Below are positions 2,943 through 64,000 of a stretch of DNA of 64,000 bases, one piece after another. The notes beneath the pieces are model-generated. The model was not told the origin of the DNA. It did no database searches and was given only the letters and a program-made list of their open reading frames with translations. The first letter of the stretch is position 1. Each line of letters starts with the position of its first letter. This stretch comes from an uncultured Bacteroidota bacterium (lineage in GTDB: Bacteria > Bacteroidota > Bacteroidia > Chitinophagales > LD1), in NCBI GenBank assembly GCA_903919075.1, contig CAIXGR010000094.1, positions 32,213 to 96,212 on the forward strand. The letters are read 5' to 3'. A program made the translations under genes and the position numbers.

Positions 2943-4634
2943 ATGAAAAAAATATATTTATTATCAGGTGTATTTATTTTGCTTTTGCTTAACCAAGGAT
3001 TAAATTTAAAAGCACAAGGTGGTGTTGGGATAAACGGAGTGGGCGCACCACCGGATAACTCAGCGGGATTAGATGTAAACTACACGAACAAAGGCCTGCT
3101 GATGCCAAGGCTTACAACATTACAACGCGATGCAATAGTTAATCCTGCAGAAGGCCTTCAGATTTACAACACAGATTGTAAAGTGTATAATTTTAATGCC
3201 GGCACACCCTCTAATCCAAACTGGGCAACAATTAATTCTTCGAACGCATTAATAGCCGGGGTAAGCATTTACGCTGTACCTGCCGGTGCTATTTGTGCAG
3301 GTACTAATGTAACCTTTACTGCTACCCCCTCCAGCGGTATTGGTTCGTTAAGCTATCAATGGCAAGTGAATGGCGGAAACGTGGGTAATAATAGTGCCTC
3401 GTACAGTACTACCGGTTTGAATAATGGCGATGTAGTAACTTGTGTGCTAACATCTACAGCCCCATGTGTTTCAGGTTCGCCAGCAACGTCAAATGCTATA
3501 GTAATGGAAGTGAACCCCTACTTACCTGCCAGTGTAAATATTGATATAAGCCCTTCCAATTCAGTGTGTGCATTAACCAGTGTTACCTTTACGGCAACAC
3601 CTTCAAATGGTGGCCCCTCTCCTTCTTACCAATGGCAGATAAACGGAACTAATAACGGTGTAATTGGCCCTACTTATACAACCACAGGATTAAATAACAA
3701 TGACCAGGTAACCTGTGTAATTACGTCGAACGCTACTTGTGTAACCGGTTCGCCGGCCACTTCGAATAACATAAACATGACGATTTATTCAATTCCGGCA
3801 TCTACCTTTTATCCTCATTATGTTCCTGTAAATCTGGCAACCAGTTTTGCGCCAACAGTAACGGGTGCAACTTATGCTTGGACATTTACGGGTGGGTCGC
3901 TAGCAAGCAGCACCGATCAAAACCCATCTGTAACCTGGACATCGACAGGAATTGACACCGTGACTTTACAGGTAACTTTGAACGGCTGTTCTACCACAAC
4001 TAAAAGCTTGCTTACTGTGGCTAATCCGCAACCTTCGTGCCTTGCAATACTTAGTGTAGATCCTTCATCGCAAAATGGAATATATACTATTGTGCCTCCA
4101 GGAGGCGGAGGACAAATGTCGGTTTATTGTGACATGGTTACTGATGGCGGGGGCTGGACGCTTGTAGGTAAAAGTGATTACCAAAGCACTGCCAATTCGG
4201 ACCCAAGCACTGTGAACGGATGGCCACTTAATGTTTACGATGTAGGAGATAATGGAACCGGCACTGGAAAATTTGATGATGGCTTGACTGATAATATTGC
4301 TACCAATAAACAGGTATGGCTATCGGCACCGGGTAGCTTGGATTACATTAAGTTTTCGTATTCGGGTACATACAACTATACTTGGGATAACATGGGCGTT
4401 TCGGGACTTACATCGAGCTATTTTGCCAATTGGAGTGGCGTATTGGAACAAGATGGGGGTTTCGGGTGGTTTTTGAGAGGCGACCCTTATGATGGCAGAA
4501 TAGTTGCTATGGATGCGGGTGGCCAATATTGTGGCGGCTCATCTATAAGTGTTGGCCCGGGTACGCAAACAAATATTAATACCTGTGGCGGGCAGGATCA
4601 GGCATGGTATAGATATCTTTGGTTTGTACGATAA
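2943..4634 (+). CDS. secreted multidomain protein with two Ig-like repeat modules and a C-terminal fibrinogen-related-like domain
   Basis: N-terminal signal peptide. Duplicated module C.GTNVTFTATPS...YQWQ.NG...TTGLNN.D.VTCV.TS...C.GSPATSN. C-terminal SCLAIL...NGIYTIVP...VYCDMVTDGGGWTLV motif. Confidence 0.6.
   Translation: MKKIYLLSGVFILLLLNQGLNLKAQGGVGINGVGAPPDNSAGLDVNYTNKGLLMPRLTTLQRDAIVNPAEGLQIYNTDCKVYNFNAGTPSNPNWATINSSNALIAGVSIYAVPAGAICAGTNVTFTATPSSGIGSLSYQWQVNGGNVGNNSASYSTTGLNNGDVVTCVLTSTAPCVSGSPATSNAIVMEVNPYLPASVNIDISPSNSVCALTSVTFTATPSNGGPSPSYQWQINGTNNGVIGPTYTTTGLNNNDQVTCVITSNATCVTGSPATSNNINMTIYSIPASTFYPHYVPVNLATSFAPTVTGATYAWTFTGGSLASSTDQNPSVTWTSTGIDTVTLQVTLNGCSTTTKSLLTVANPQPSCLAILSVDPSSQNGIYTIVPPGGGGQMSVYCDMVTDGGGWTLVGKSDYQSTANSDPSTVNGWPLNVYDVGDNGTGTGKFDDGLTDNIATNKQVWLSAPGSLDYIKFSYSGTYNYTWDNMGVSGLTSSYFANWSGVLEQDGGFGWFLRGDPYDGRIVAMDAGGQYCGGSSISVGPGTQTNINTCGGQDQAWYRYLWFVR
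3294..3785 (+). repeat. two tandem coding repeats (~75-aa Ig-like modules) inside the 2943-4634 CDS
   Basis: CAGTNVTFTATPSSGIGSLSYQWQVNG...SPATSNAIVMEV versus CALTSVTFTATPSNGGPSPSYQWQING...SPATSNNINMTI. Confidence 0.8.
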
Positions 4635-16019: not shown

Positions 16020-18350
16020 TTATTTATTCAAAACAAGCTGCTTAACAGCCCTTCTTCCATTTTGATTTAATTCAACCACATAAACACCGTTGGTAAATTG
16101 CGAAAGGTCAATTTGGGTTTGCACTTCGGTAAGTTCCTTAGTATAAATTTTTTGCCCCAAAATGTTTTCCAGATTAAGAATGGTGCCATTATCCAAATGC
16201 CCCAGCTCAATCATCACTTCACTTTTTGCAGGGTTAGGATATAGGTTAAAAGATATGGCATTATTAATATGGTTAACACCAGTAGCCAGATTAACAGCTA
16301 CCAAAGCAGTTTCGTAGCAACCGCTTTGATCGGTAACTGTAACTAAATAATTACCCGGGGCAAGATTAGAAACAGAGGCCGTTGTTGCGCTATTGCTCCA
16401 TTTGTACGTGTACGGAGATAAGCCTCCGGTAATGTCTTCAATTACAGCGCTGCCATTTGTGCCAGTACTTGGGCTAACTGCAGTATTAAAATTAATTTGG
16501 TAAGGTTCATTTACCATAATATTCGAAACAGTTGTGCAGCCATTATTAGTAACTGTAACAGTATATGGGCCCGCAGCCAAATTCGAAATAGAATTAGTAG
16601 TGGCGCCAGTATTCCACAAATATGAATATTCACTACCAGTCCCCCCTGTAACACTTACACTAGCGTCGCCGTTAGCCGATGTGCAAGCTGCATCAGTAAT
16701 TTGCGGAGTAATGATAATTTGCGCAGGCTGTGAAATGCTTTCGCTTAATGAAACAGAACATCCTCCGGCATCATGCACAACTACTTGATAATTACCGGCA
16801 GCAAGATTATTATTGTTAGAATTAGTATTTCCGTTGTTCCACAAATAACTATAGTTTGGGGTTCCACCAGATACCGAAATGCTTGCTGCCCCATTAGAAG
16901 CGCCAAAACAATTTGCACCCACAGCTGAATGGCCGCTAATAACCAATTTAGGATTTACAGTAACTGTAATGCTAGATGTGCCTGTAAACCCGCTGCTGTC
17001 AATTTTTACAGTGTATGTTGTGGTAGTAACAGGATAAGCATTGGTATATGCACATGTTGGGCAACTTAAACCCGTTGTAGGTGTCCAACTATAAATTTCA
17101 CTTGAAGCAGATGCAATAAGAATAGTAGTATCGCCCTTACAAAGTGATGTTTGAATAGCTGTAGCTTGCACACCGGCCCTAATAGGTTGAATACCAATTA
17201 AGGCTCCTTCGTTGGAGCTAAAGTTATAGCCACCGGCTGAAAGATTTGATACTAAAAAATATCCATTCGAAGAGCCGCCCCAACCCCAGTTCATATGCAA
17301 CATATCATTCTGATCATAGCCATCGCAAACCCAGGTATGCCCACCGGTAGGGTCAAAACCTTCGTATTGAACTGGCCGCCCTGCATCCAATTCACCTTTA
17401 ATCAGAGTAAGCCACTCATCGGCGGTATAATATGCTTCAATAATGCCTTGTATGGTATTAGGATCGTATGAAAAATAATCTACAAAAGCTTGCTGAGCAC
17501 TATGCCCGTGAAGTGATTGAGATGCAAGCACTGCAGCACCACTACCACCTTCTGTCTCATCACCATAATCCATCGCAACACTAACTCCGCATTGGTACAT
17601 AAGTGTGGAAACATAATTATTGGTGTTACTTACGTAAAGTGGCATACCCGTCCAATTGTAGGTTGTTGAACCAAAATCAGCAGATTGAAGGCCGTAATTA
17701 TGCGAGTAGCCTGGCCACCCATCGGTATACGAAAATGAGCCAAAGCCTTTTGCAGGGTAACTCCAGTATTTCATAATTTGTGCCATTGTGGTAGCAACGC
17801 ATCCGGTAACGCACCGCTGGCCGTCTGTGGCATTAAATGGGCAAAGATCATTGTAGATAGGGGATTGATTCCATGCTGTTTTTATAAGCGGAGCCACTGT
17901 GTTGCTTTTCGCAATACCAGGATTTTGCCCCTGACGGTATGCCGACCATAAACCAGCAATTCTCGAATCGGCAATTTCATTTTGCAGTATACCCTTGTAA
18001 ATGTTGGATGAAGCATGGCCCATCCAATCCTTTAGCCCGGTAAGGTTCATTTCAGGTTCAAAGGAAGATTCGGTTGAATAGCCTATAACCGGAACAATAT
18101 TATCATCGGCAGATACAATTACAAACCCAGTTACAGGGGTCATGTTAAACACATAAAAATCTATGGTATTGTCTGCTTCAATTTTGGTGTATTTTAGTGA
18201 AGCATTAATCTGCAACTTATTAGCAGCCTGAACATTAACTTTGAAGAAATTAAGGGCCACAATTTGGGCCTCTTGTGAGGTAATTTTATAGGCAAATGCA
18301 GTAAGAACAGTGGATATCAATATGCCCAGCAATACAACATATTTTCTCAT
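16020..18350 (-). CDS. C10 (streptopain-like) cysteine peptidase with SprB-type repeats and a T9SS C-terminal sorting domain
   Basis: N-terminal Spi-inhibitor-like propeptide, catalytic Cys block TGCVATTMAQIMKYWSYP, His block GGHTWVCDGYD. Three C.G..NG.A...V.GG...Y.Y.W repeats. C-terminal LYPNPAKSEV...GVYVVEL. Confidence 0.85.
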   Translation of the reverse strand: MRKYVVLLGILISTVLTAFAYKITSQEAQIVALNFFKVNVQAANKLQINASLKYTKIEADNTIDFYVFNMTPVTGFVIVSADDNIVPVIGYSTESSFEPEMNLTGLKDWMGHASSNIYKGILQNEIADSRIAGLWSAYRQGQNPGIAKSNTVAPLIKTAWNQSPIYNDLCPFNATDGQRCVTGCVATTMAQIMKYWSYPAKGFGSFSYTDGWPGYSHNYGLQSADFGSTTYNWTGMPLYVSNTNNYVSTLMYQCGVSVAMDYGDETEGGSGAAVLASQSLHGHSAQQAFVDYFSYDPNTIQGIIEAYYTADEWLTLIKGELDAGRPVQYEGFDPTGGHTWVCDGYDQNDMLHMNWGWGGSSNGYFLVSNLSAGGYNFSSNEGALIGIQPIRAGVQATAIQTSLCKGDTTILIASASSEIYSWTPTTGLSCPTCAYTNAYPVTTTTYTVKIDSSGFTGTSSITVTVNPKLVISGHSAVGANCFGASNGAASISVSGGTPNYSYLWNNGNTNSNNNNLAAGNYQVVVHDAGGCSVSLSESISQPAQIIITPQITDAACTSANGDASVSVTGGTGSEYSYLWNTGATTNSISNLAAGPYTVTVTNNGCTTVSNIMVNEPYQINFNTAVSPSTGTNGSAVIEDITGGLSPYTYKWSNSATTASVSNLAPGNYLVTVTDQSGCYETALVAVNLATGVNHINNAISFNLYPNPAKSEVMIELGHLDNGTILNLENILGQKIYTKELTEVQTQIDLSQFTNGVYVVELNQNGRRAVKQLVLNK
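16290..16920 (-). repeat. three tandem SprB-like coding repeats within the C10 peptidase
   Basis: CFGASNGAASISVSGGTPNYSYLWNNG..., CTSANGDASVSVTGGTGSEYSYLWNTG..., STGTNGSAVIEDITGGLSPYTYKWSNS... Confidence 0.7.
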
Positions 18351-24816: not shown

Positions 24817-27531
24817 ATGACTACCCTTATTAAAGAAAAAATAATCAATAAGCTTCCGTCGGCTAATAACGGAAACGGGAATGCAACACAGGAATCTGCA
24901 TCTTCTACACTACTTAAAAAAATAGCGGCTAAAGAAAAACCGGAAATATTGATGCTTTTAGAAAGCCGCGATTCTGGTTTAAATGAGCTCGAAGTTGAAG
25001 CTAAGTTTGATACCGAGGGCCAAAATGAAGTAGTGCATGAAAAAGCACCACCATGGTATATGCAATTGCTTGGGGCTTTTGCCAATCCGTTTATTATTGT
25101 GTTGCTGGTGCTGGCGTTCATATCCCTTATTATGGATGTAATGCGGCAGGAACCTGAAAACCGCGATTACAAAACTGTAATTGTTATTTCGGTAATGGTG
25201 TTTCTAAGCACTTTCATTCGCTTTTTACAAGAGTACCGAAGCAATGTAGCAGCCGAAAAGCTGAAGTCGATGGTTACAACTACCGCTACAGTATTGCGTG
25301 AGGAAACCGGCAGAACAGAAATTGATATTAAGCAACTGGTGCCGGGCGATATCATTTTCCTTTCAGCCGGTGACATGATGCCTGCAGATATCCGCATCCT
25401 TCAATCAAAGGATCTTTTCGTAAGTCAGGCCATGCTTACCGGTGAAGCCTTACCGGTAGAAAAGAAAGAACATGCTATTCCCGATATTCAAAACAAATCG
25501 GTTCTTGATTTAGAGAATATTTGCTTTATGGGCACTAATGTAGTTAGTGGTACAGCAATAGCCATAGTGGTTAATACAGGCAATAAAACCTACTTCGGCT
25601 CTATGGCTAAATCGTTAGTAGGCAAACGGGCTGAAACAAGTTTTGATAGGGGTGTAAACAGTGTAAGCTGGCTGCTTATCCGGTTTATGCTGGTAATGGT
25701 ACCTCTTGTATTTTTGGTTAATGGCTTAACCAAACACGATTGGGTACAAGCTTTTATGTTCGGGCTATCTATAGCCGTTGGACTTACCCCCGAAATGTTA
25801 CCCATGATAGTTACCGCCAACCTTGCTAAAGGTGCTGTAAACATGAGCAAGCGTAAAGTGGTAGTAAAGCGCTTAAACGCAATTCAGAACATAGGGGCCA
25901 TGGATATTTTATGCACCGATAAAACCGGTACACTTACTCTTGATAAAATTGTTTTGGAACGCTATCTGAATGTATATGGCAACGACGACGATGAGGTTTT
26001 AAAATGGGCCTACCTAAACAGCTATCATCAAACCGGTTTAAAAAGTTTGCTTGATGTAGCCATATTGGAACACCTTGAATTGAGAAAAGAATTAAAGGTG
26101 GATGAAGATTATGTAAAGGTGGATGAAATTCCTTTCGATTTTCAACGCAGAAGAATGTCTGTAATTCTTGACCAAAAAAACGATAAACACCTACTTATAT
26201 GCAAGGGCGCTGTTGAAGAGATGCTTTCAATATGTTCTCATGCCATAGACCCCGGCGAGAATAATCAGATACAATTTGATACAGATGATATTATTCCATT
26301 AAATGATACTGTAAAAAATAAAATTACTGAAATAACTCGTAAGCTGAATGAAGACGGATTACGAGTATTACTGGTAGCAATAAAGGAATATGACGAACGA
26401 CCACTTACGTACACCGTTGCAGATGAAGGCAACATGATACTGACCGGTTTCGTTGGCTTTCTTGATCCCCCGAAACCTTCAGCTGCTACATCTATCATTG
26501 CATTGCAAAAACTCGGCGTATCTGTTAAAGTATTGACCGGCGACAATGAAATTGTAACTAAAAAAATATGTAAGCAGATTGGGATTCCTATAACTAATAT
26601 ATTATTAGGTAGCGACCTCGAAAATTTAAGTGACAAAGAACTGGAGGATAGAATTGAGGATGTTTCCATTTTGGCCAAGCTAAGCCCGGTGCAAAAATCG
26701 CGAGTGGTAAAAGTGTTGCAAGGTAAGGGCCATACAGTAGGATTTCTTGGAGATGGCATTAACGACGCTGCTGCTCTTCGTGATGCGGATGTAGGTATTT
26801 CAGTAAATACGGCTGTGGATATAGCCAAAGAAAGCGCTGATATAATTTTGCTTGAAAATGATTTAATGGTATTACGTAAAGGCGTAATATATGGTCGCCG
26901 AACTTTTGGCAATATTATCAAATACATAAAGATGACTGCCAGTAGCAACTTTGGCAACGTGTTCAGCGTTTTGGGGGCAAGTGCATTTCTTCCGTTTTTG
27001 CCTATGTTGCCAGTGCACATACTTGTACAAAACCTGCTTTATGATATTTCGCAAATATCCATTCCATGGGATAGTATGGATGCAGAGTATATTCAAACCC
27101 CGCGCAAATGGGATGCCGGTGGCATAGGGAAGTTTATGCTTTTTATTGGCCCCATCAGTTCCATTTTCGATTATGCTACGTTCCTTATCATGTATTTTAT
27201 TTTCGCAGCAAATACACCGGGAAAACAAACCCTCTTTCAATCGGGTTGGTTTATTGAGGGGCTACTTTCGCAAACGCTTATAGTGCATATGATACGGACC
27301 AAAAAAATTCCGTTTATACAAAGTTGGGCTACTGCACCGGTTGTAGCATTAACCTCCCTTATTATGCTTATTGGCATCTGGATTCCCTTTTCGCCTTTTG
27401 CGAGCGCTTTAAAACTACAACCACTACCGGCATCATATTTTTTATGGTTGGTGGGTATTTTGTTTGCCTACTGTGCCTTAACACAACTCATAAAAAATTG
27501 GTTTATTCGCAAGTATAACCAATGGTTATAA
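24817..27531 (+). CDS. mgtA: magnesium-translocating P-type ATPase
   Basis: DKTGTLT phosphorylation site, TGDN, GDGINDAAALRDADVGISV, ten-TM layout, about 900 aa as for MgtA/MgtB. An AGGAGG sits 9 nt upstream of the ATG. Confidence 0.92.
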   Translation: MTTLIKEKIINKLPSANNGNGNATQESASSTLLKKIAAKEKPEILMLLESRDSGLNELEVEAKFDTEGQNEVVHEKAPPWYMQLLGAFANPFIIVLLVLAFISLIMDVMRQEPENRDYKTVIVISVMVFLSTFIRFLQEYRSNVAAEKLKSMVTTTATVLREETGRTEIDIKQLVPGDIIFLSAGDMMPADIRILQSKDLFVSQAMLTGEALPVEKKEHAIPDIQNKSVLDLENICFMGTNVVSGTAIAIVVNTGNKTYFGSMAKSLVGKRAETSFDRGVNSVSWLLIRFMLVMVPLVFLVNGLTKHDWVQAFMFGLSIAVGLTPEMLPMIVTANLAKGAVNMSKRKVVVKRLNAIQNIGAMDILCTDKTGTLTLDKIVLERYLNVYGNDDDEVLKWAYLNSYHQTGLKSLLDVAILEHLELRKELKVDEDYVKVDEIPFDFQRRRMSVILDQKNDKHLLICKGAVEEMLSICSHAIDPGENNQIQFDTDDIIPLNDTVKNKITEITRKLNEDGLRVLLVAIKEYDERPLTYTVADEGNMILTGFVGFLDPPKPSAATSIIALQKLGVSVKVLTGDNEIVTKKICKQIGIPITNILLGSDLENLSDKELEDRIEDVSILAKLSPVQKSRVVKVLQGKGHTVGFLGDGINDAAALRDADVGISVNTAVDIAKESADIILLENDLMVLRKGVIYGRRTFGNIIKYIKMTASSNFGNVFSVLGASAFLPFLPMLPVHILVQNLLYDISQISIPWDSMDAEYIQTPRKWDAGGIGKFMLFIGPISSIFDYATFLIMYFIFAANTPGKQTLFQSGWFIEGLLSQTLIVHMIRTKKIPFIQSWATAPVVALTSLIMLIGIWIPFSPFASALKLQPLPASYFLWLVGILFAYCALTQLIKNWFIRKYNQWL

Positions 27532-48093: not shown

Positions 48094-49479
48094 ATGAAAA
48101 AAGCGATTTTCATTTTAATGGTTTCACTTCTTGTTTGCGTTCAAATTAAGGCGCAGTTGTATGGCTGGAGCAAATTGGGAGACGTAAATGAATGGGGAGC
48201 TAATGGAGAAATAAATAGCATATGCAGCGATGCAGCAGGAAATATTTATGCCGCCGGTCAATTTAAAAACGATTCGGGTAATTATTACGTAGCAAAATAT
48301 AATGGAACCATGTGGAGCGAATTGGGTGGATTAAATAGCCTTGCGGCTAATAATTTAATAAGCAGTATATATTGCGATGCTTCAGGCAATATTTATGCAG
48401 CCGGAGGTTTCTCCAATGTTTGGGGCAATTATTACGTTGCCAAATACAATGGAAGCACCTGGAGCGAGTTAGGCGGCCCAGATAGTTTGGCCGCAAACAG
48501 TTATATTTTCAGTATATGTGGTGATGCTTTCGGAAATATTTATGCCGCCGGCGGGTTTACTGATGGGCTTGGATATACTTTTGTAGCTAAATTTAACGGA
48601 ATAACCTGGGGGGAATTAACAGGCTTACACACATATTTCGCTAATGCCGACATTATAAGTATTTGTACCGATTCATTGGGGCATGTATATGCCGCAGGCA
48701 ATCTTTACAACTCTCATTCTCACACTTACGTAGCCAGATATAATGGAACAACTTGGGACGAATTAGGTGGCATAGATGCTTTGGCTGCAAATAATACCAT
48801 ACTATGTATATACAGTGATGCATCGGGAAATATTTATGCTGGTGGTTATTTTAATACCTCCCAGACCAGCGATGGTAATTACTACGTAGCCAAATACAAC
48901 GGAACCATCTGGAACGAATTGGGTGGGGCCGATAGCCTATCTGCAGCAGATGTAATCATTAACATCTGTAGCGATGCCTATGGCAATATCTTTGCAGCCG
49001 GCGCATTTAAAAATGGTTCGAATAATAATTATGTGGCCCAATACAATGGAACAACATGGAGCGAATTGGGCGGCTTGAACGGCTTGGCAGCTAATGGTTT
49101 AATTAATTCTATGTGTGTTGACCCATCGGGAAATATATATGCTGCCGGTTATTTCTCAGACGGGGCTAACATGTGGACAGGAAATTATTATGTTGCTAAA
49201 TATGGCACTTTAACCGGTATTAATAAAATGGGTGCAGCCGGGGCGCTGAATTTATTTCCCAACCCCACCAACAATGCGCTTACAATTTCAACAGGTAATA
49301 CAATAACTGATGCCAGTATTAAAGTGTTCAATATTACGGGGCAGGTTGTTATTGAAAAAAATAATCAAACGGGCGATAAATTTGTTTTGGACTTATCTAA
49401 TCAACCGGCAGGAATTTATTTTGTGGAAGTGCGCAATGGGGAAAATGTTTGGGTTGAGAAGGTGGTGAAAGAGGATTAG
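48094..49479 (+). CDS. secreted seven-repeat beta-propeller-like protein (SBBP-type repeats) with a T9SS C-terminal sorting domain
   Basis: Signal peptide. Seven units of G(N/H)(I/V)(Y/F)A(A/G)G....N..GNYYVAKYNG..W.ELGG...LAAN by my count. C-terminal LNLFPNPTNNALTI...GIYFVEV. Confidence 0.7.
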   Translation: MKKAIFILMVSLLVCVQIKAQLYGWSKLGDVNEWGANGEINSICSDAAGNIYAAGQFKNDSGNYYVAKYNGTMWSELGGLNSLAANNLISSIYCDASGNIYAAGGFSNVWGNYYVAKYNGSTWSELGGPDSLAANSYIFSICGDAFGNIYAAGGFTDGLGYTFVAKFNGITWGELTGLHTYFANADIISICTDSLGHVYAAGNLYNSHSHTYVARYNGTTWDELGGIDALAANNTILCIYSDASGNIYAGGYFNTSQTSDGNYYVAKYNGTIWNELGGADSLSAADVIINICSDAYGNIFAAGAFKNGSNNNYVAQYNGTTWSELGGLNGLAANGLINSMCVDPSGNIYAAGYFSDGANMWTGNYYVAKYGTLTGINKMGAAGALNLFPNPTNNALTISTGNTITDASIKVFNITGQVVIEKNNQTGDKFVLDLSNQPAGIYFVEVRNGENVWVEKVVKED

Positions 49480-58731: not shown

Positions 58732-59034
58732 ATGAAAAAACAATTATTCATATCTATATTTCTATGCGGCCTTCAAATTGTTATTTGCCAGGCCACCCAA
58801 TCATTTCCGCCACAGCAATATCCACTATATGCAGGATTTACCAATGGCAATCATGGTGAAAGCACCTGTTCCACCCATTCTAGTTGCTCAGTTAATATGA
58901 TGAATGAGCAGTACACCGTTCAACCCAGCAACAATTTAGGTGATACGGCAAAACAGGCTACCCTAAAAATAAACCTATCAGATTCTTTTGTTCAACAGGA
59001 ATGTGACGACCTGTGCACTTCCGGCCCTGAGTAG
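58732..59034 (+). CDS. hypothetical small secreted protein
   Basis: Signal peptide MKKQLFISIFLCGLQIVICQA. Mature part contains 5 Cys. No family recognised. Confidence 0.4.
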   Translation: MKKQLFISIFLCGLQIVICQATQSFPPQQYPLYAGFTNGNHGESTCSTHSSCSVNMMNEQYTVQPSNNLGDTAKQATLKINLSDSFVQQECDDLCTSGPE

Positions 59035-59535: not shown

Positions 59536-59892
59536 ATGAAAAAAAAACAAGATACTACCAAATCACTTGCTGAGCAGGCCACGCAAAACGAGAAATCGGA
59601 TATTCAAAAAAAACTGACCTATCCCCCAAGTGAGGATATTTACAACAAAGACCAAGAGGAAGAAAATATTGATCCTGAAGATACTGCTAAAATAAAAGCC
59701 CCAAATGAAGATTGGGAAACAGAAAATAACGAAAAAATTTTTGATGAGGACGTTTCGGGTAGCGATTTGGATGTACCCGGCTCGGAATTAGATGATGATC
59801 GGGAAAAAGACGGGGAAGAAGATAAAGAGAATAATTATTACAGTTTAGGTGGAGATAGCCACAACGATTTGGAAGAAGACAAGGGAGATTAA
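59536..59892 (+). CDS. hypothetical highly acidic protein
   Basis: D/E-rich low-complexity sequence with DVSGSDLDVPGSELDD and YYSLGGDSHNDLEED. Confidence 0.45.
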   Translation: MKKKQDTTKSLAEQATQNEKSDIQKKLTYPPSEDIYNKDQEEENIDPEDTAKIKAPNEDWETENNEKIFDEDVSGSDLDVPGSELDDDREKDGEEDKENNYYSLGGDSHNDLEEDKGD

Positions 59893-61163: not shown

Positions 61164-61259
61164 ATGGCTCCGCTAATTCCTTGGCCTTGTGAAATCGACC
61201 TTTATACTGTAAACCCTAACTAAAAAAAAGCCGCCTCATTGCTGAGTGCGGCCCTTTTC
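61164..61259 (+). ncRNA. candidate ~95-nt small RNA defined only by an orphan -7 box and a terminator
   Basis: TATGTTTG (61151-61158) fits TAnnTTTG and is followed about 65 nt later by the hairpin and T run at 61230-61258. No ORF in between. Purely structural inference. Confidence 0.2.
61222..61259. terminator. bidirectional rho-independent terminator between convergent genes
   Basis: A8-GCCGCCTCA-TTGC-TGAG(T)GCGGC-CCTTTT: a 9-bp stem with one bulge, flanked by an A run and a T run. Confidence 0.7.
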
Positions 61260-61275
61260 ATGGTGCAAAATAATA

Positions 61276-62322
61276 TTATTGTATTGCTATCTGCCCGGTT
61301 GACGCAATAGTATTACCGTCTGTTACAATGTAAATGTAGTTTCCGGTTGTTAAACCTTCCTTGCCCAGTTCGAAATTACCGTTGCTAAGATTAGTTCGGG
61401 TCATTACCACCCTTCCGCTGGTTTCATAAAGTTTAAAAGTAACATTGCCTGTAGTGTTTTGAATTTGCAACACAGCGCTTGAAACCATAGGGTTAGGATA
61501 TATAAGCACTTTAGCTTTTGCATTACCGTTGCTTATCATTAACATCTCATGGTGTTGATTGTGGTTGTTGCCCCCAAGTGTGTCACTACCACCATTGCCA
61601 TTACTATCTCCAGTGGTATCAATTCCACCTGCACCGTTATTATCACCACCAGTATTAATAGTATCGTTACCACCGCTGCCGTTGTCTCCATCTCCGCTAT
61701 GTATGGTGTCATTACCACCTGTTCCATGGTCGCCATTAATATCTATGGTATCATTTCCTCCACTTCCACCATTGTGAATGGTATCGTTGCCTCCACTACC
61801 GTGATTACCATCTCCATTGGGTATAGTGTCGTTACCGCTAGCCCCATGGTCCCCATCGTTATCGATTATAGTATCATTTCCACCGCTGCCGTGATCGCCG
61901 TCGCCGTGGTTAATAGTATCGTTGCCGCCGGTTCCATGGTTGCCACCGTTGTCGCTGGTGGTATCATTTCCACCACTGCCATGGTTAATGGAGTCGTTGC
62001 CGCCACTACCATGGTCACCATTTCCATTGTGTATAGTATCATTTCCTCCACCGTCTCCATGATGTGTAGTATCACCCCAATGAATACCGCCATGACTTTC
62101 AATAGAATCATGCATAAACTGATGAAAGTGGTTATCCATATGAGAAATAGTATCATGGTTAGCATGCCCATGTGTGTGAATGGTATCATTTCCCTCATGG
62201 TGTCCATGATGATCAAATGCGCTTACCTTTGAAGTTAAGAGCAGTAAAAAAAACATTACAGAAAGTACGGGTGAAAGCAATTTAATGCTTTCTGATTTTT
62301 GGAAAAAGGCTAGTGTTTTCAT
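61276..62322 (-). CDS. secreted His/Asp/Gly-rich GGNDTI tandem-repeat protein with a T9SS C-terminal sorting domain
   Basis: Signal peptide. His-rich head (HHGHHEGNDTIHTHGHANHDTISH...). About a dozen units of G.GDHGSGGNDTI.N. C-terminal IYPNPMVSSAVLQI...GNYIYIV CTD. Confidence 0.7.
   Translation of the reverse strand: MKTLAFFQKSESIKLLSPVLSVMFFLLLLTSKVSAFDHHGHHEGNDTIHTHGHANHDTISHMDNHFHQFMHDSIESHGGIHWGDTTHHGDGGGNDTIHNGNGDHGSGGNDSINHGSGGNDTTSDNGGNHGTGGNDTINHGDGDHGSGGNDTIIDNDGDHGASGNDTIPNGDGNHGSGGNDTIHNGGSGGNDTIDINGDHGTGGNDTIHSGDGDNGSGGNDTINTGGDNNGAGGIDTTGDSNGNGGSDTLGGNNHNQHHEMLMISNGNAKAKVLIYPNPMVSSAVLQIQNTTGNVTFKLYETSGRVVMTRTNLSNGNFELGKEGLTTGNYIYIVTDGNTIASTGQIAIQ
61550..62215 (-). repeat. tandem coding repeats (~42-45 bp unit) of the GGNDTI protein
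   Basis: Periodic GGTAATGATACnATT-type units are visible on the minus strand. They also create long spurious ORFs in other frames (61549-62232+, 61866-62216-). Confidence 0.75.
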
Positions 62323-62356
62323 AGGTCATTTTTATTTTGTGAGTAAATATTTATGG

Positions 62357-63040
62357 TTATTGAATATTAATTTTCAGTGCTATTTTCTCGCCGCTTTTCA
62401 AGCGGATATCTGCTATATATATTCCCACTGTCCAGACAGATGTTGGAATTTCGAAAGGCCATGATTTTTGAGTGTTGTAAATTTCTCTTCCCATTAAATC
62501 AAATATCCTCAGCTCACTCACTTGTTCGGTACCGCCCTGACTAATGATATAAAGTGTTTTATTACTTGCCCATGCCAAGGCTTTGGTTTTGATTTGCTCT
62601 TCAATACCTGTTAGCCTCACATTGATTTGTGCGCTGATAATATCGTGCGCCTGGGTAGTATCTACCGAACCCAGAGCCGGCCAAATAACCAAACCATTGG
62701 GGCCCGCAATGAAATTGCTCGGCTTTGCAACAATTACAAAAAGCAAAGGAATGCTATCTCCACCCGGTATATTAACTAACTGATTTTGCAAAGGATTAGT
62801 AAATACCGTAGGATCGGTAACCAATATGTTGTTTACAGCCAGATTAAAACTAAGCGAATCAATAAAAGGGTGGTCATCGTAATTAACCAGCTTTGTATTA
62901 ATAAAAATGGTATCGCCCAAAGCCACATTAGTATTAACTACCGAGGTGCTTATAAACCCAATGGTGCCATGGGCATTACCTAAATAACTAACCCATAGCA
63001 GGCAAACCGTAAAAGCAATTTTTGTAAAGGCACGTGTCAT
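62357..63040 (-). CDS. hypothetical secreted protein with a T9SS C-terminal sorting domain
   Basis: Signal peptide ...LGNAHG. C-terminal LRIFDLMGREIY...GIYIADIRL...KINIQ. Lies 34 nt upstream of the GGNDTI-repeat gene on the same strand. Confidence 0.55.
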   Translation of the reverse strand: MTRAFTKIAFTVCLLWVSYLGNAHGTIGFISTSVVNTNVALGDTIFINTKLVNYDDHPFIDSLSFNLAVNNILVTDPTVFTNPLQNQLVNIPGGDSIPLLFVIVAKPSNFIAGPNGLVIWPALGSVDTTQAHDIISAQINVRLTGIEEQIKTKALAWASNKTLYIISQGGTEQVSELRIFDLMGREIYNTQKSWPFEIPTSVWTVGIYIADIRLKSGEKIALKINIQ

Positions 63041-63185
63041 AATTCTTTATTTAACGTAAAGATAGCCTCAAGTTCTGCATAAAACAACTTTGTTTTAGAT
63101 ATTTATTACGCGCTTAAGGCATTAATTTTTGTACATATTTATTATATTCGTTAAAGAAATAACAAAGTTAAACGGAAGAAAAGAT

Positions 63186-64000
63186 ATGGAAATTTTGAAC
63201 AAAATAGTTTCTCAAATGAGTAAAGAAGAAATTCGCTTCTTCAAAATATACTCGACCAGAATGGCTGATACCCCAGGAAGGAAAGACCTGCTGCTATTCG
63301 ATAAAATACGAGCGAAAAAGGAGCAGTTTGATGAGGCCGCTGTTGCAAAGAAACTGTACGGTTCAAAAACGGGTTCTTATTACCGCCTTAAGCATCGTTT
63401 AATGAGCAATTTAAATGAGTATGTAGTGTTGCATTACTACGGAAAAGATAAAATACATGACCTAAACCGCGATTGGGCTTTATACAACGTTTACATAAGC
63501 AAAAATAATTTTGAGCTGGCAGTTCACTTTTTAAAGAAGGCCGAGAAGAAAGCTGCGGAGTTTGAAAATTTTGAAATGCTGGATTTGATATACAATGGAT
63601 TTATACGAATGAGTGCAGAGCTGGTAGACATAAACCCCGAATACTATATAGCAAAAAGAAAGGATAACGCTTCGCGGCTTAACCTTATTCGTGAAATGGA
63701 CCAAGCGCTCTCGGTTATTAGTTACAGACTACGCAGCACCCAGAATTTTTTACCGGAAAACAGAACCCTTACTTCTTTACTTAATACCGCTTTGCAGGAT
63801 TTTGTTACTGATACCACTACCAAAAACAGCCGCAGCTTTCAAAGCAGAATTTATCGGGCCATCAGCCAAATTTTGTTGCAAAGGCACCAATACGCCGAGT
63901 TGGCAAAGTACCTATTAAAAACATTTAAAAAATTTGAACGCGAAAAATGGTTTGATAAAGACAGCCATGATATTAAACTGCAAATGCTTACCTACCTTGC
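63186..64000 (+). CDS. hypothetical protein, 5' part (runs off the window end; absent from the ORF track)
   Basis: My translation from the ATG at 63186 stays open to base 64000: MEILNKIVSQMSKEEIRFFKIYSTRMADTPGRKDLLLFDKIRAKKEQFDE...HDIKLQMLTYL. Helical, Lys/Glu-rich. No family recognised. Confidence 0.5.
   Translation, partial: MEILNKIVSQMSKEEIRFFKIYSTRMADTPGRKDLLLFDKIRAKKEQFDEAAVAKKLYGSKTGSYYRLKHRLMSNLNEYVVLHYYGKDKIHDLNRDWALYNVYISKNNFELAVHFLKKAEKKAAEFENFEMLDLIYNGFIRMSAELVDINPEYYIAKRKDNASRLNLIREMDQALSVISYRLRSTQNFLPENRTLTSLLNTALQDFVTDTTTKNSRSFQSRIYRAISQILLQRHQYAELAKYLLKTFKKFEREKWFDKDSHDIKLQMLTYL

Follow-up and report, generated by a model that had tools for sequence, protein, structure and literature searches.

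General features of the locus

The window under study, a stretch of 64,000 nucleotides from an uncultured Bacteroidota bacterium, contains an open reading frame (ORF) whose product has, in this order, a signal peptide, a His-dense head, approximately 12 units rich in Gly, Asn, Asp and His, and a type-A C-terminal domain (CTD) of the T9SS. The positions of these features are given in table 1. The intact signal peptide, the above-threshold CTD and the terminator-like hairpin at the 3' end indicate that the ORF is a real, selected gene. RNA folding assigned the hairpin a stability of -21.4 kcal/mol (z -4.98), and none of 200 shuffled sequences was equally stable. Contigs from several samples carry the sequence with 100% identity. 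The contig is present in the samples ERZ27313614, ERZ18668442 and ERR4194719, and assemblies break within the gene. Comparison of repeat number among strains, proposed in the preliminary description of the locus, revealed no variation, the partial copies in other assemblies being identical except for mismatches at contig tips. These C-to-A mismatches look like sequencing errors.

Table 1. Features of the repeat-protein gene and its surroundings (positions within the window)
Feature	Position	Strand	Description
Whole ORF	61276..62322	(-)	348 aa; stop codon 61276-61278
Sec signal peptide, aa 1-35	62218..62322	(-)	MKTLAFFQKSESIK / LLSPVLSVMFFLLLLT / SKVSA, followed by FDH; read from sequence
His-dense head, aa 36-90	62053..62217	(-)	16 His in 55 residues; four degenerate units
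Super-repeat copy 1, aa 91-160	61843..62052	(-)	Five units; D-to-D spacings 15, 10, 15, 15, 15
Super-repeat copy 2, aa 161-230	61633..61842	(-)	Five units; D-to-D spacings 15, 11, 14, 15, 15
Two degenerate terminal units, aa 231-250	61573..61632	(-)	AGGIDTTGDSN and GNGGSDTLG; no His
Linker, aa 251-271	61510..61572	(-)	GNNHNQHHEMLMISNGNAKAK
T9SS type-A C-terminal sorting domain, aa 272-348	61279..61509	(-)	PF18962, TIGR04183, PDB 8glj_D, AF2 beta-strands
Terminator-like hairpin, then U8	61222..61259	(-)	Begins 17 nt past stop codon; RNA fold
Spacer to upstream gene	62323..62356	(-)	34 nt, without terminator
Upstream co-oriented gene	62357..63040	(-)	227 aa; signal peptide, one beta-sandwich domain, probable T9SS CTD

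The orientation of the upstream gene and its distance of 34 nt are as first reported and, as the spacer has no terminator, the two genes are likely to be co-transcribed. The upstream product had also been described as a CTD protein. Its own score of 19.9 bits is below the cut-off of 23, but all three members of its family match TIGR04183 (best E 6.8e-7), which leaves the CTD probable. Its structure, two generic beta-sandwiches, was uninformative. That the two genes form a conserved pair was rejected, since the gene that follows the upstream gene's relatives in that slot encodes a 968-aa SBBP beta-propeller cargo.

The assignment of the repeat protein to the T9SS cargo was borne out. Its CTD scores above the curated cut-offs of both PF18962 (28.8 bits, cut-off 27) and TIGR04183 (34.7 bits, cut-off 23), it matches the CTD in PDB entry 8glj_D (E 8e-5) and AF2 predicts beta-strands in it. 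The N-terminal Sec signal peptide also expected of type-A cargo can be read from the sequence; it is of the n/h/c type, with a basic n-region, a hydrophobic h-region and the end VSA35-F36, where the -3/-1 rule predicts cleavage after A35. AF2 places a helix at residues 11-30, within this signal peptide. Three further CTD proteins are encoded in the window (16020-18350, 48094-49479 and 62357-63040), and no T9SS machinery genes were identified among the window ORFs scanned.

Architecture of the repeat

The head agrees exactly with the sequence quoted before, and its four units are degenerate, with x-D-(S/T)-(I/T) alone kept. The array is a 70-aa super-repeat of five units present twice, self-identity being 0.57-0.61 at an offset of 70 residues versus 0.45 at an offset of 15. 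The second copy shares 61% protein identity with the first, and 72% DNA identity over 179 nt. The consensus of the unit is the nearly canonical RTX nonapeptide G-(S/T/A)-G-G-N-D-T-I-x, to which most units add a second one in truncated form, x-G-D-G-(D/N)-H; units range from 10 to 17 residues in length and have one hydrophobic residue each. A period of 14-15 aa had been proposed, which holds for only part of the array: seven of the 11 D-to-D spacings are of 15 residues, but the others are of 10, 11, 12 and 14. Nor is there a His in nearly every unit, as first thought; it is found in only seven of the 12 array units, its density drops from the N-terminal to the C-terminal side and the last five units have none.

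Protein identity between units is 65% and DNA identity 60-72%, while identical residues share the same codon in 38% of cases, as expected at random. Tandem Repeats Finder found no tandem repeat in the DNA. As synonymous sites are randomised between units, the sequence indicates that the array is old and under selection.

Searches for homologues

A phmmer search of 5.8e9 protein clusters with the full protein retrieved one match, restricted to the CTD, and with the array alone nothing at E<=10. Among 1.84e9 representative proteins, residues 36-267 retrieved five RTX proteins and three low-complexity eukaryotic proteins; the bacterial matches were true HemolysinCabind (PF00353) proteins only, and no homologue or orthologue of the repeat protein was found among these 1.84 billion. 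To control for HMMER bias, unit-permuted and mutated copies of the protein were used as targets in a local phmmer search at equal database size. They were still detected with up to approximately 50% of residues replaced, so the negative result is meaningful. Sequence searches of the PDB with the array and with the head gave nothing at E<=10, a scan of genome contigs returned only giant RTX (PF00353) proteins from Vampirovibrio and Pirellulales MAGs, and a protein-based scan of metagenome contigs found nothing. At the DNA level, a pair of G-N-D-T-(I/L/V/M/F) motifs at a distance of exactly 15 codons occurs in at least 120 loci; the matches listed were either RTX ORFs of the ordinary kind or a pentapeptide repeat, GNDTM, and not one of them was His-rich or had a T9SS CTD. 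A literature search on RTX or His-rich T9SS cargo found nothing relevant. The view that the repeat is not a described family was thus upheld across Pfam/TIGR profiles, the PDB (E<=10) and protein clusters, where it has no match.

A fast-evolving, low-complexity orphan ORF that serves no specific function or is not expressed would account both for the lack of homologues in every search and for the different gene that relatives hold in this slot. We nevertheless consider this explanation very unlikely, because the protein motif has been kept while synonymous sites were randomised, both the signal peptide and the CTD are intact and exceed the threshold, a terminator is present, and the same sequence recurs without change in several samples.

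Relationship to RTX repeats

The RTX-like order of residues, noted from inspection of the sequence, was recovered by colinear HMM and hhalign alignments. A home-made HMM of the RTX 18-mer gave the protein a raw score of 76 bits, far above shuffled sequences (9.6 +/- 4.0, maximum 29), and hhalign aligned the unit profile with an RTX profile at 93.8% probability (E 1.7e-7), colinearly over 13 columns; only these first 13 columns of the pair align. The composition correction of HMMER removes the entire score of the RTX HMM (-30.5 bits, bias 99), and the suggested comparison with HemolysinCabind (PF00353) gave no match at E<=1. This correction hides such proteins from Pfam, so that their annotation stays "hypothetical".

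In the alignment, the first nonapeptide corresponds to a Ca-binding turn plus one short beta-strand. The second keeps the Gly turn but lacks the strand, with His or Asn at the position of the Ca-ligand Asp. As each roll turn lacks its second strand, unit length is variable and hydrophobicity is low, a regular two-sheet beta-roll cannot simply be assumed. The solenoid of beta-roll type suggested at first was not reproduced by structure prediction: a single-sequence AF2 run on the whole protein, without ions, gave no confident model of the repeat, with pLDDT of 32-40 across it.

The RTX family is defined by tandem GGxGxDxUx nonapeptides recognised by PF00353, by T1SS export with an uncleaved C-terminal signal, and by the binding of Ca2+, which induces folding into a beta-roll (PMC3034196, PMC6891781). 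In the repeat protein the D-to-D spacing is never 9, a Sec signal and a T9SS CTD are found instead, and no T1SS ABC or MFP genes adjoin the gene. The sequence thus indicates units that are RTX-derived in pattern, but the protein is not a member of the RTX family, as it has no PF00353 match, its period is not 9 and it carries signals for Sec and T9SS rather than T1SS export.

Sequons and putative O-glycosylation

The general O-glycosylation motif of Bacteroidota is D(S/T)(A/I/L/V/M/T) (PMC8729774). The repeat protein has 16 D[ST][AILMTV] triplets, all of the form D-(S/T)-(I/T/L) and close to the preliminary count of about 15, and 13 G-x-D-[ST]-[ILT] motifs. The triplets are strongly enriched: composition-preserving shuffles contain 1.06 +/- 0.97 (maximum 5), and the density of 4.6 per 100 aa is 18-fold higher than the mean of 54 other window ORFs (0.26). 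Within the mature protein the density rises to 6.8 per 100 aa, or one triplet per 13 residues. The three triplet positions are the sole class-invariant columns among the units (16 of 16). With an export signal and 16 motifs, the protein has at the sequence level what a substrate of the general Bacteroidota O-glycosylation system should have. The 12 N-D-(T/S) triplets (11 NDT and one NDS) were set aside as N-glycosylation sites, the residue at -2 being Gly and not Asp or Glu; to our knowledge, Bacteroidota have no N-glycosylation system of such kind.

These data bear on a plausible although unlikely explanation, namely that the protein is a permanently disordered, mucin-like glycoprotein brush in which the repeat presents sequons on a flexible acidic chain, RTX likeness reflects ancestry or convergence, and any metal binding would be incidental. 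The triplet is kept even in the four head units that have no Gly turn, which argues for selection on Thr itself. Furthermore, the RTX x7 position is S or T in 16 of 16 units versus 50-60% in canonical RTX, and the Thr at the "hydrophobic" position of three units suits a sequon, not an RTX core. Disorder would be consistent with the low AF2 confidence and with the charge-hydropathy plot, which places the mature part well inside its disordered region. Of the four sequons in the neighbouring cargo protein, three are also conserved in both of its homologues. The T9SS cargo of T. forsythia is heavily O-glycosylated: TfsB has 19 sites, TfsA has 11, and a further 90 are spread over 16 cargo proteins (PMC8729774). 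In P. gingivalis, by contrast, the abundant T9SS cargo avoids O-glycosylation (PMC8729774). However, the RTX consensus GNDT[LI] contains the triplet, so the sequon is partly an automatic by-product, and a glycan carrier has no need of the conserved G-x-G-G-N context, the 30 His residues or the complete lack of Lys and Arg. Apo-RTX domains look equally disordered by the same measures, and glycosylation is compatible with a metal-dependent fold, as the Thr of the strand would face outward.

Composition and putative metal binding

The mature part of the protein, excluding the CTD, has approximately 236 aa (23.6 kDa), a pI of 4.8 and a net charge of about -32; it contains 30 His and 33 Asp, and neither Lys nor Arg. 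Canonical RTX blocks are Lys/Arg-poor and acidic to an equal degree, but their His content is 0-1%, versus 13% here and a background of 2.1%, and their hydrophobic residues amount to 21-24%, versus 8%. The alignment places His at the Ca-ligand Asp of RTX in eight units.

High His content, together with these substitutions, would also be expected of a dedicated Zn/Ni/Cu capture or detoxification protein acting through His/Asp clusters and an ATCUN-type N-terminus, without an RTX-like Ca-dependent fold and comparable in principle to His-rich metal-storage or scavenging proteins. The 16 His among the 55 residues of the head form clusters of the HHGHH, HTHGH and HxxMH type. The predicted mature N-terminus, F36-D37-H38, has His at position 3, which we take to be the pattern of an ATCUN-type Cu/Ni site; this X-X-His pattern arises only if cleavage follows A35, a site predicted by rule, and to that extent weakens the argument. 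We judge this explanation quite unlikely, considering that the last five units are devoid of His, that no metal-homeostasis genes (metal transporters, TonB receptors or regulators) adjoin the gene, and that neither profile libraries nor the PDB sequence search with the head revealed similarity to a known metal-binding family.

Proposed function

The explanation that we tentatively favour, with a probability of roughly 0.45, is that the repeat protein is a lineage-restricted surface or secreted T9SS cargo, probably O-glycosylated, whose mature part would in its entirety be a divalent-cation-binding module of modified RTX-type units. Its composition and charge fit cation-binding chemistry and were counted in favour. 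The sequence has the features for Sec export, with the signal peptide presumably cut at VSA-FDH. The acidic chain would be mostly unfolded in the periplasm, where the general O-glycosylation system of Bacteroidota could act on the 16 triplets. The type-A CTD would direct export by the T9SS, and its removal might be followed by surface anchoring or release. Outside the cell, the GxGGND turns may bind Ca2+ as in RTX, the chain condensing into a beta-roll-like or otherwise compact form, and the His-rich head and His/Asp spacers may take up Zn, Ni, Cu or other transition metals. The outcome would be a glycan-decorated, metal-loaded surface coat or metal buffer. Against this stand the lack of a PF00353 match, the AF2 pLDDT of 32-40, the variable units, the absence of orthologues to show conservation and of adjoining metal-homeostasis genes, the non-conserved gene pair and the precedent of P. 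gingivalis cargo.

A more radical version, which we regard as decidedly improbable, is an undescribed metal-dependent repeat fold, in which an RTX-derived unit has lost its second strand and exchanged the second Ca-ligand Asp for His. It would form a mixed Ca2+/transition-metal rod or coil with an O-glycan on the outward Thr of every unit, exported by the T9SS as a metal-stiffened surface fibre or protein metallophore.

Comparison with known systems

His-rich metal-binding segments include Hpn, the ZinT N-terminus and ATCUN X-X-His peptides. They resemble the repeat protein in their HHGHH/HTHGH-like clusters and, in the case of ATCUN, in the His at position 3 of the predicted N-terminus, but they have no sequence relationship to it, and the repeat protein differs in being T9SS-exported and fused to an RTX-like array.

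Compared with the T. forsythia S-layer proteins TfsA and TfsB, the sequon density is roughly five times higher (6.8 per 100 aa versus about 1-1.4, on the protein lengths that we assume for TfsA and TfsB), and the sequons lie within a repeat. All three proteins have a signal peptide and a T9SS CTD and contain several D(S/T)(A/I/L/V/M/T) sites (PMC8729774).

Modified or one-sided beta-rolls are known: region IV of Marinomonas primoryensis MpIBP is built of 19-mers, and in block 2 of LipA the Asp is replaced in every other repeat (PMC6891781). Ca-bound MpIBP region IV (XGTGND-XUXU-GGXUXG-XUX) shares with the present array one canonical Ca turn per repeat, with a non-canonical second turn, approximately 12 uninterrupted repeats and, within the G-(S/T)-G turn, a residue with a hydroxyl group (PMC6891781). 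The repeat is of 15 residues here instead of 19, with one hydrophobic residue instead of four; rather than 19-residue repeats with two strands per coil, we found units of 10-17 residues with a single hydrophobic position. MpIBP is part of a T1SS adhesin, whereas the repeat protein is a His-rich T9SS cargo.

This likeness raises the possibility of a Ca-bound solenoid that binds ice or a mineral/crystal surface, like MpIBP region IV. Binding would be through an outward T-I-H/N ladder, made up of Thr with His or Asn, or through the S/T residues in the turn G-(S/T)-G-G-N-D. The Thr does not vary, and two positions further on the residue is often His, Asn or Asp. Coils of 15 residues occur in ice-binding beta-rolls, and P0009, a protein with a 15-residue NGDADHG repeat, weakly matches the grass antifreeze beta-roll family. 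MpIBP region IV, with one Ca turn in each of 12 uninterrupted coils, is moreover the closest described non-canonical RTX variant (PMC6891781). Even so, this is the least probable explanation considered here: with units of irregular length a binding face would not stay flat, AF2 gave no folded model of the repeat, a His-rich sequence is atypical of ice-binding proteins, and the Pfam search matched no ice-binding family.

The parallel beta-roll of RTX proteins (PF00353; AprA, HlyA, CyaA) is similar in that G-x-G-G-N-D-T-I-x aligns column for column with GGxGNDxUx, in its acidic, Gly/Asn/Asp-rich and Lys/Arg-free composition, and in that the best sequence neighbours of the repeat protein are all PF00353 proteins. 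The differences are a period of about 15 (range 10-17) rather than 9, the lack of an xUx strand in every second "nonapeptide", where His or Asn stands for the Ca-ligand Asp, 13% His in the repeat protein region with no match to the Pfam model, Sec and T9SS export with a cleaved CTD instead of T1SS export with an uncleaved C-terminal signal, and the absence of any other functional domain. If the favoured explanation is correct, Ca-binding units of the RTX type are not bound to type I secretion; shortening, Asp-to-His exchange and glycosylation would have turned them into a free-standing surface module delivered by Sec and T9SS. It would also follow that all RTX-like arrays of Bacteroidota are candidates for hyper-glycosylation, as the O-glycosylation sequon of the phylum is part of the RTX consensus G-N-D-T-(L/I); the repeat protein would offer a compact case for testing this. 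The Ca-switchable beta-roll scaffolds already used in protein engineering could, moreover, be extended to other metals with an RTX variant that contains His.

Organization of the cargo gene

The cargo protein opens with a typical Sec signal peptide, comprising a basic n-region, the h-region LLSPVLSVMFFLLLLT and the c-region SKVSA/FDH. As the preliminary description had proposed, it ends in a T9SS C-terminal domain (CTD), which scores above the curated thresholds of both PF18962 (28.8 bits, cut-off 27) and TIGR04183 (34.7 bits, cut-off 23) and matches the solved CTD 8glj_D with an E value of 8e-5. Beginning 17 nt past the stop codon is a strong hairpin (-21.4 kcal/mol, z -4.98) with a U8 tract behind it. 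The co-oriented upstream gene ends 34 nt from the cargo start codon, the distance originally given, and no terminator was found in this gap. The GGN/AAY/GAY/ACN codon bias of the repeat gives rise, as a mirror artefact, to an antisense ORF of 227 aa with a high content of V, I, T, S and A; this is not a gene.

Features of the cargo locus and of its surroundings in the window
Feature	Position	Strand	Remarks
Repeat cargo ORF	61276-62322	-	encodes 348 aa
Hierarchical array, two 70-aa super-repeats of five units	61633-62052	-	copies 61% identical in protein, 72% in DNA
T9SS type-A CTD	residues 272-348 of cargo protein	-	PF18962, TIGR04183 and 8glj_D matches
Upstream gene	62357-63040	-	227 aa
T9SS type-A cargo	16020-18350	-	776 aa
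T9SS type-A cargo	48094-49479	+	461 aa, SBBP-like repeats
Fibrinogen-like GGGWT-domain protein	2943-4634	+	
MgtA-type Mg2+ P-type ATPase	24817-27531	+	
Family-less ORF	58732-59034	+	
Family-less ORF	59536-59892	+	
Family-less ORF	63186-64000	+	
TAnnTTTG match	63163-63170	-	TAACTTTG
Rejected antisense ORF	61549-62232	+	not a gene

Repeat anatomy and selection

The mature part (residues 36-271; 23.6 kDa, pI 4.8, net charge about -32 at pH 7) holds 33 Asp, 30 His and neither Lys nor Arg, and 83% of it is Gly, Asn, Asp, Ser, Thr and His. The protein contains 13 G-x-D-[ST]-[ILT] motifs and 16 D-[ST]-[ILT] triplets, in agreement with the earlier count of about 15. D-to-D spacings along the array are 15, 10, 15, 15, 15, 15, 11, 14, 15, 15 and 12, so that the proposed period of 14-15 residues holds for most spacings but not for those of 10, 11 and 12. 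Self-comparison of the array gives the highest identity, 0.57-0.61, with a shift of 70 residues (0.45 with a shift of 15), and a 179-nt block of the array DNA recurs 210 nt away with 72% identity; the array is therefore built of two five-unit super-repeats of 70 aa plus degenerate end units, the one short unit of each super-repeat occupying the same position. The dozen units first described were found (12), but His occurs in 7 of them rather than in nearly each.

The head (residues 36-90), with 16 His in 55 residues, consists of four decayed units that keep only x-D-(S/T)-(I/T). Such a composition could suit a His-driven scavenger of transition metals lacking an RTX-like fold, a distinctly improbable reading; the His content of the array units fades towards the C-terminus, and no metal-uptake genes occur among the cargo-gene neighbours, which apart from the upstream gene are housekeeping (OYE-family reductase, cupin, purC, phoH, ribH and others).

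Protein identity among the compared ten-residue unit cores is 65%, yet identical residues share a codon in only 38% of pairs, as expected from random codon choice, and TRF detects no DNA tandem repeat in the array. The array is therefore old, its peptide motif is under selection and it did not arise by recent slippage; the cargo repeat is selected coding sequence.

Relation to RTX repeats

Pfam HemolysinCabind gives no match to the cargo protein at E<=1. An HMM built from 82 canonical 18-mers of true RTX proteins reached a raw score of 76 bits (composition-matched shuffles 9.6 +/- 4.0, maximum 29), aligning G-S-G-G-N-D-T-I-H-N-G-D-G-D to GGaGNDtLyGGaGN in every unit; the HMMER composition correction (bias 99 bits) cancels this raw score, which accounts for the lack of a Pfam match. 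Comparison of the unit and RTX profiles with hhalign gave 93.8% probability (E 1.7e-7, 13 colinear columns). From these alignments, each long unit combines a complete nonapeptide (turn GSGGND and strand TIx) with a truncated one, xGDG[DN]H, without the xUx strand and with His (8 units) or Asn (3 units) at its Ca-ligand position. The short units, 10-11 residues in length, each consist of one nonapeptide. When 1.84e9 representative proteins were searched exhaustively with phmmer, five genuine PF00353 proteins were the only bacterial matches, and the three matches in a genome-contig search were all giant RTX proteins. The RTX resemblance is thus real in residue order.

Glycosylation sequons and fold

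Sequon triplets reach 4.6 per 100 aa in the cargo protein, against a mean of 0.26 in the 54 other ORFs of the window and 1.06 +/- 0.97 triplets (maximum 5) in cargo shuffles. The sequon density previously described is thus a true enrichment, although partly an automatic by-product, the sequon being part of the RTX consensus GNDT[LI]. The only class-invariant unit columns are D, S/T and I/T/L (16/16; Gly columns 11-13/16). Ser or Thr occupies RTX position x7 in 16/16 cases (50-60% in RTX sets already biased to Thr), the triplet is kept in head units without the Gly turn, and in three units the 'hydrophobic' position is occupied by Thr, a residue that the sequon permits there and the RTX core does not. 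Together these features suggest that the triplet itself is under selection. In the x-U-x strand of a beta-roll the x7 side chain faces outward, so an RTX-like fold would leave room for a glycan on every Thr, and one reading does not exclude the other. The sequon is confirmed in the literature, where T9SS cargo of T. forsythia is heavily O-glycosylated (TfsB 19 sites, TfsA 11, with a further 90 across 16 cargo proteins); abundant T9SS cargo of P. gingivalis avoids glycosylation (PMC8729774).

AF2 gave a pLDDT of 32-40 over the repeat, and a charge-hydropathy plot places the mature part far on the disordered side (<H> 0.357; boundary 0.465). Both values would suit a purely disordered glyco-brush, which we consider unlikely; apo-RTX domains are expected to behave likewise. 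We favour, with a probability of roughly 0.45, an exported, probably O-glycosylated, divalent-cation-binding surface protein made of modified RTX-type units. Its units may each contribute a single strand to a roll whose turns are enlarged to 12 residues; this would tolerate the variable unit length and, as RTX does, keep one core Ile in each strand. Alternatively, each unit may form one thin 15-residue coil. Non-canonical rolls with Ca on one edge only are documented: MpIBP RIV has a 19-mer, XGTGND-XUXU-GGXUXG-XUX, in 12 continuous coils, and every second repeat of LipA block 2 has its Asp replaced (PMC6891781).

Homologues and genomic context

No homologue of the repeat was found in 5.8e9 protein clusters, in the 1.84e9 representative proteins (phmmer), among PDB sequences or in two metagenome scans, for the pattern scan among the matches listed; relatives >50% identical would fall inside the query's own, masked cluster. 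This is informative, since a local phmmer control at equal database size still picked up unit-permuted copies in which as much as about 50% of the residues had been replaced. Such isolation would also suit an orphan gene that is functionless or unexpressed, a very improbable reading for a selected coding sequence. The pattern scan returned an unrelated metagenome ORF of about 60 tandem G-N-D-T-M pentapeptides (contig L030, 4988-5993). Among the phmmer matches in the representative proteins, a eukaryote-looking protein of 351 aa (P0009) has a 15-residue repeat, NGDADHGVxGDLxLI, sharing N-G-D-x-D-H-G with the cargo spacer, probably by convergence; its match to PF21300, the beta-roll family of grass antifreeze proteins, is weak (E 8.6e-4). 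That match might suggest a solenoid that binds ice or crystals, a very improbable reading of the cargo protein.

The cargo sequence is 100% identical in contigs of several other samples. In other assemblies of the locus (L126-L133), from at least three independent samples, upstream and downstream contigs both end inside the 1-kb gene; no exact DNA repeats long enough to account for this were found. Their sequences differ from the window solely in C-to-A mismatches at the tips of contigs, apparently errors of low coverage.

The four CTD proteins encoded in the window and its GC content of about 40% suggest a Bacteroidota origin. The upstream 227-aa protein has two homologues (40-43% identity), all three match TIGR04183, and its AF2 model is a beta-sandwich plus CTD (pLDDT 68.6). 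Three of its sequons are conserved in both homologues (regions L004 8001-11611 and L005 1036-2285), one of which weakly matches the NCBIfam 'Ca_tandemer', a Ca-stabilised adhesin repeat (E 1.2e-4). The downstream slot of both homologues holds instead an SBBP beta-propeller T9SS cargo (968 aa in L004, cut at the contig end in L005), so the pairing with the cargo gene is not conserved. Three nearby ORFs have no family match: one encodes a protein of 100 aa that contains Cys and has a signal peptide, one a very acidic protein of 118 aa, and the third, divergently transcribed, runs off the window, measures 485 aa in other contigs and is kept beside the homologue in L004. The divergent intergenic region has an exact Bacteroidetes -7 motif 123 nt upstream of the 227-aa gene, which is not evidence of a promoter, about 30 chance matches being expected in a window of this size.

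Overall, the preliminary observation is confirmed with corrections and its interpretation supported in part. The repeat design, in which RTX consensus and sequon overlap, is neat and testable, though it concerns a single orphan gene. The likeness to the RTX core stands for residue order (HMM and hhalign) but not for period, Pfam model or secretion route; the RTX family is defined by a nonapeptide period, a PF00353 match and a secretion route of its own, and the cargo protein departs from it in all three.
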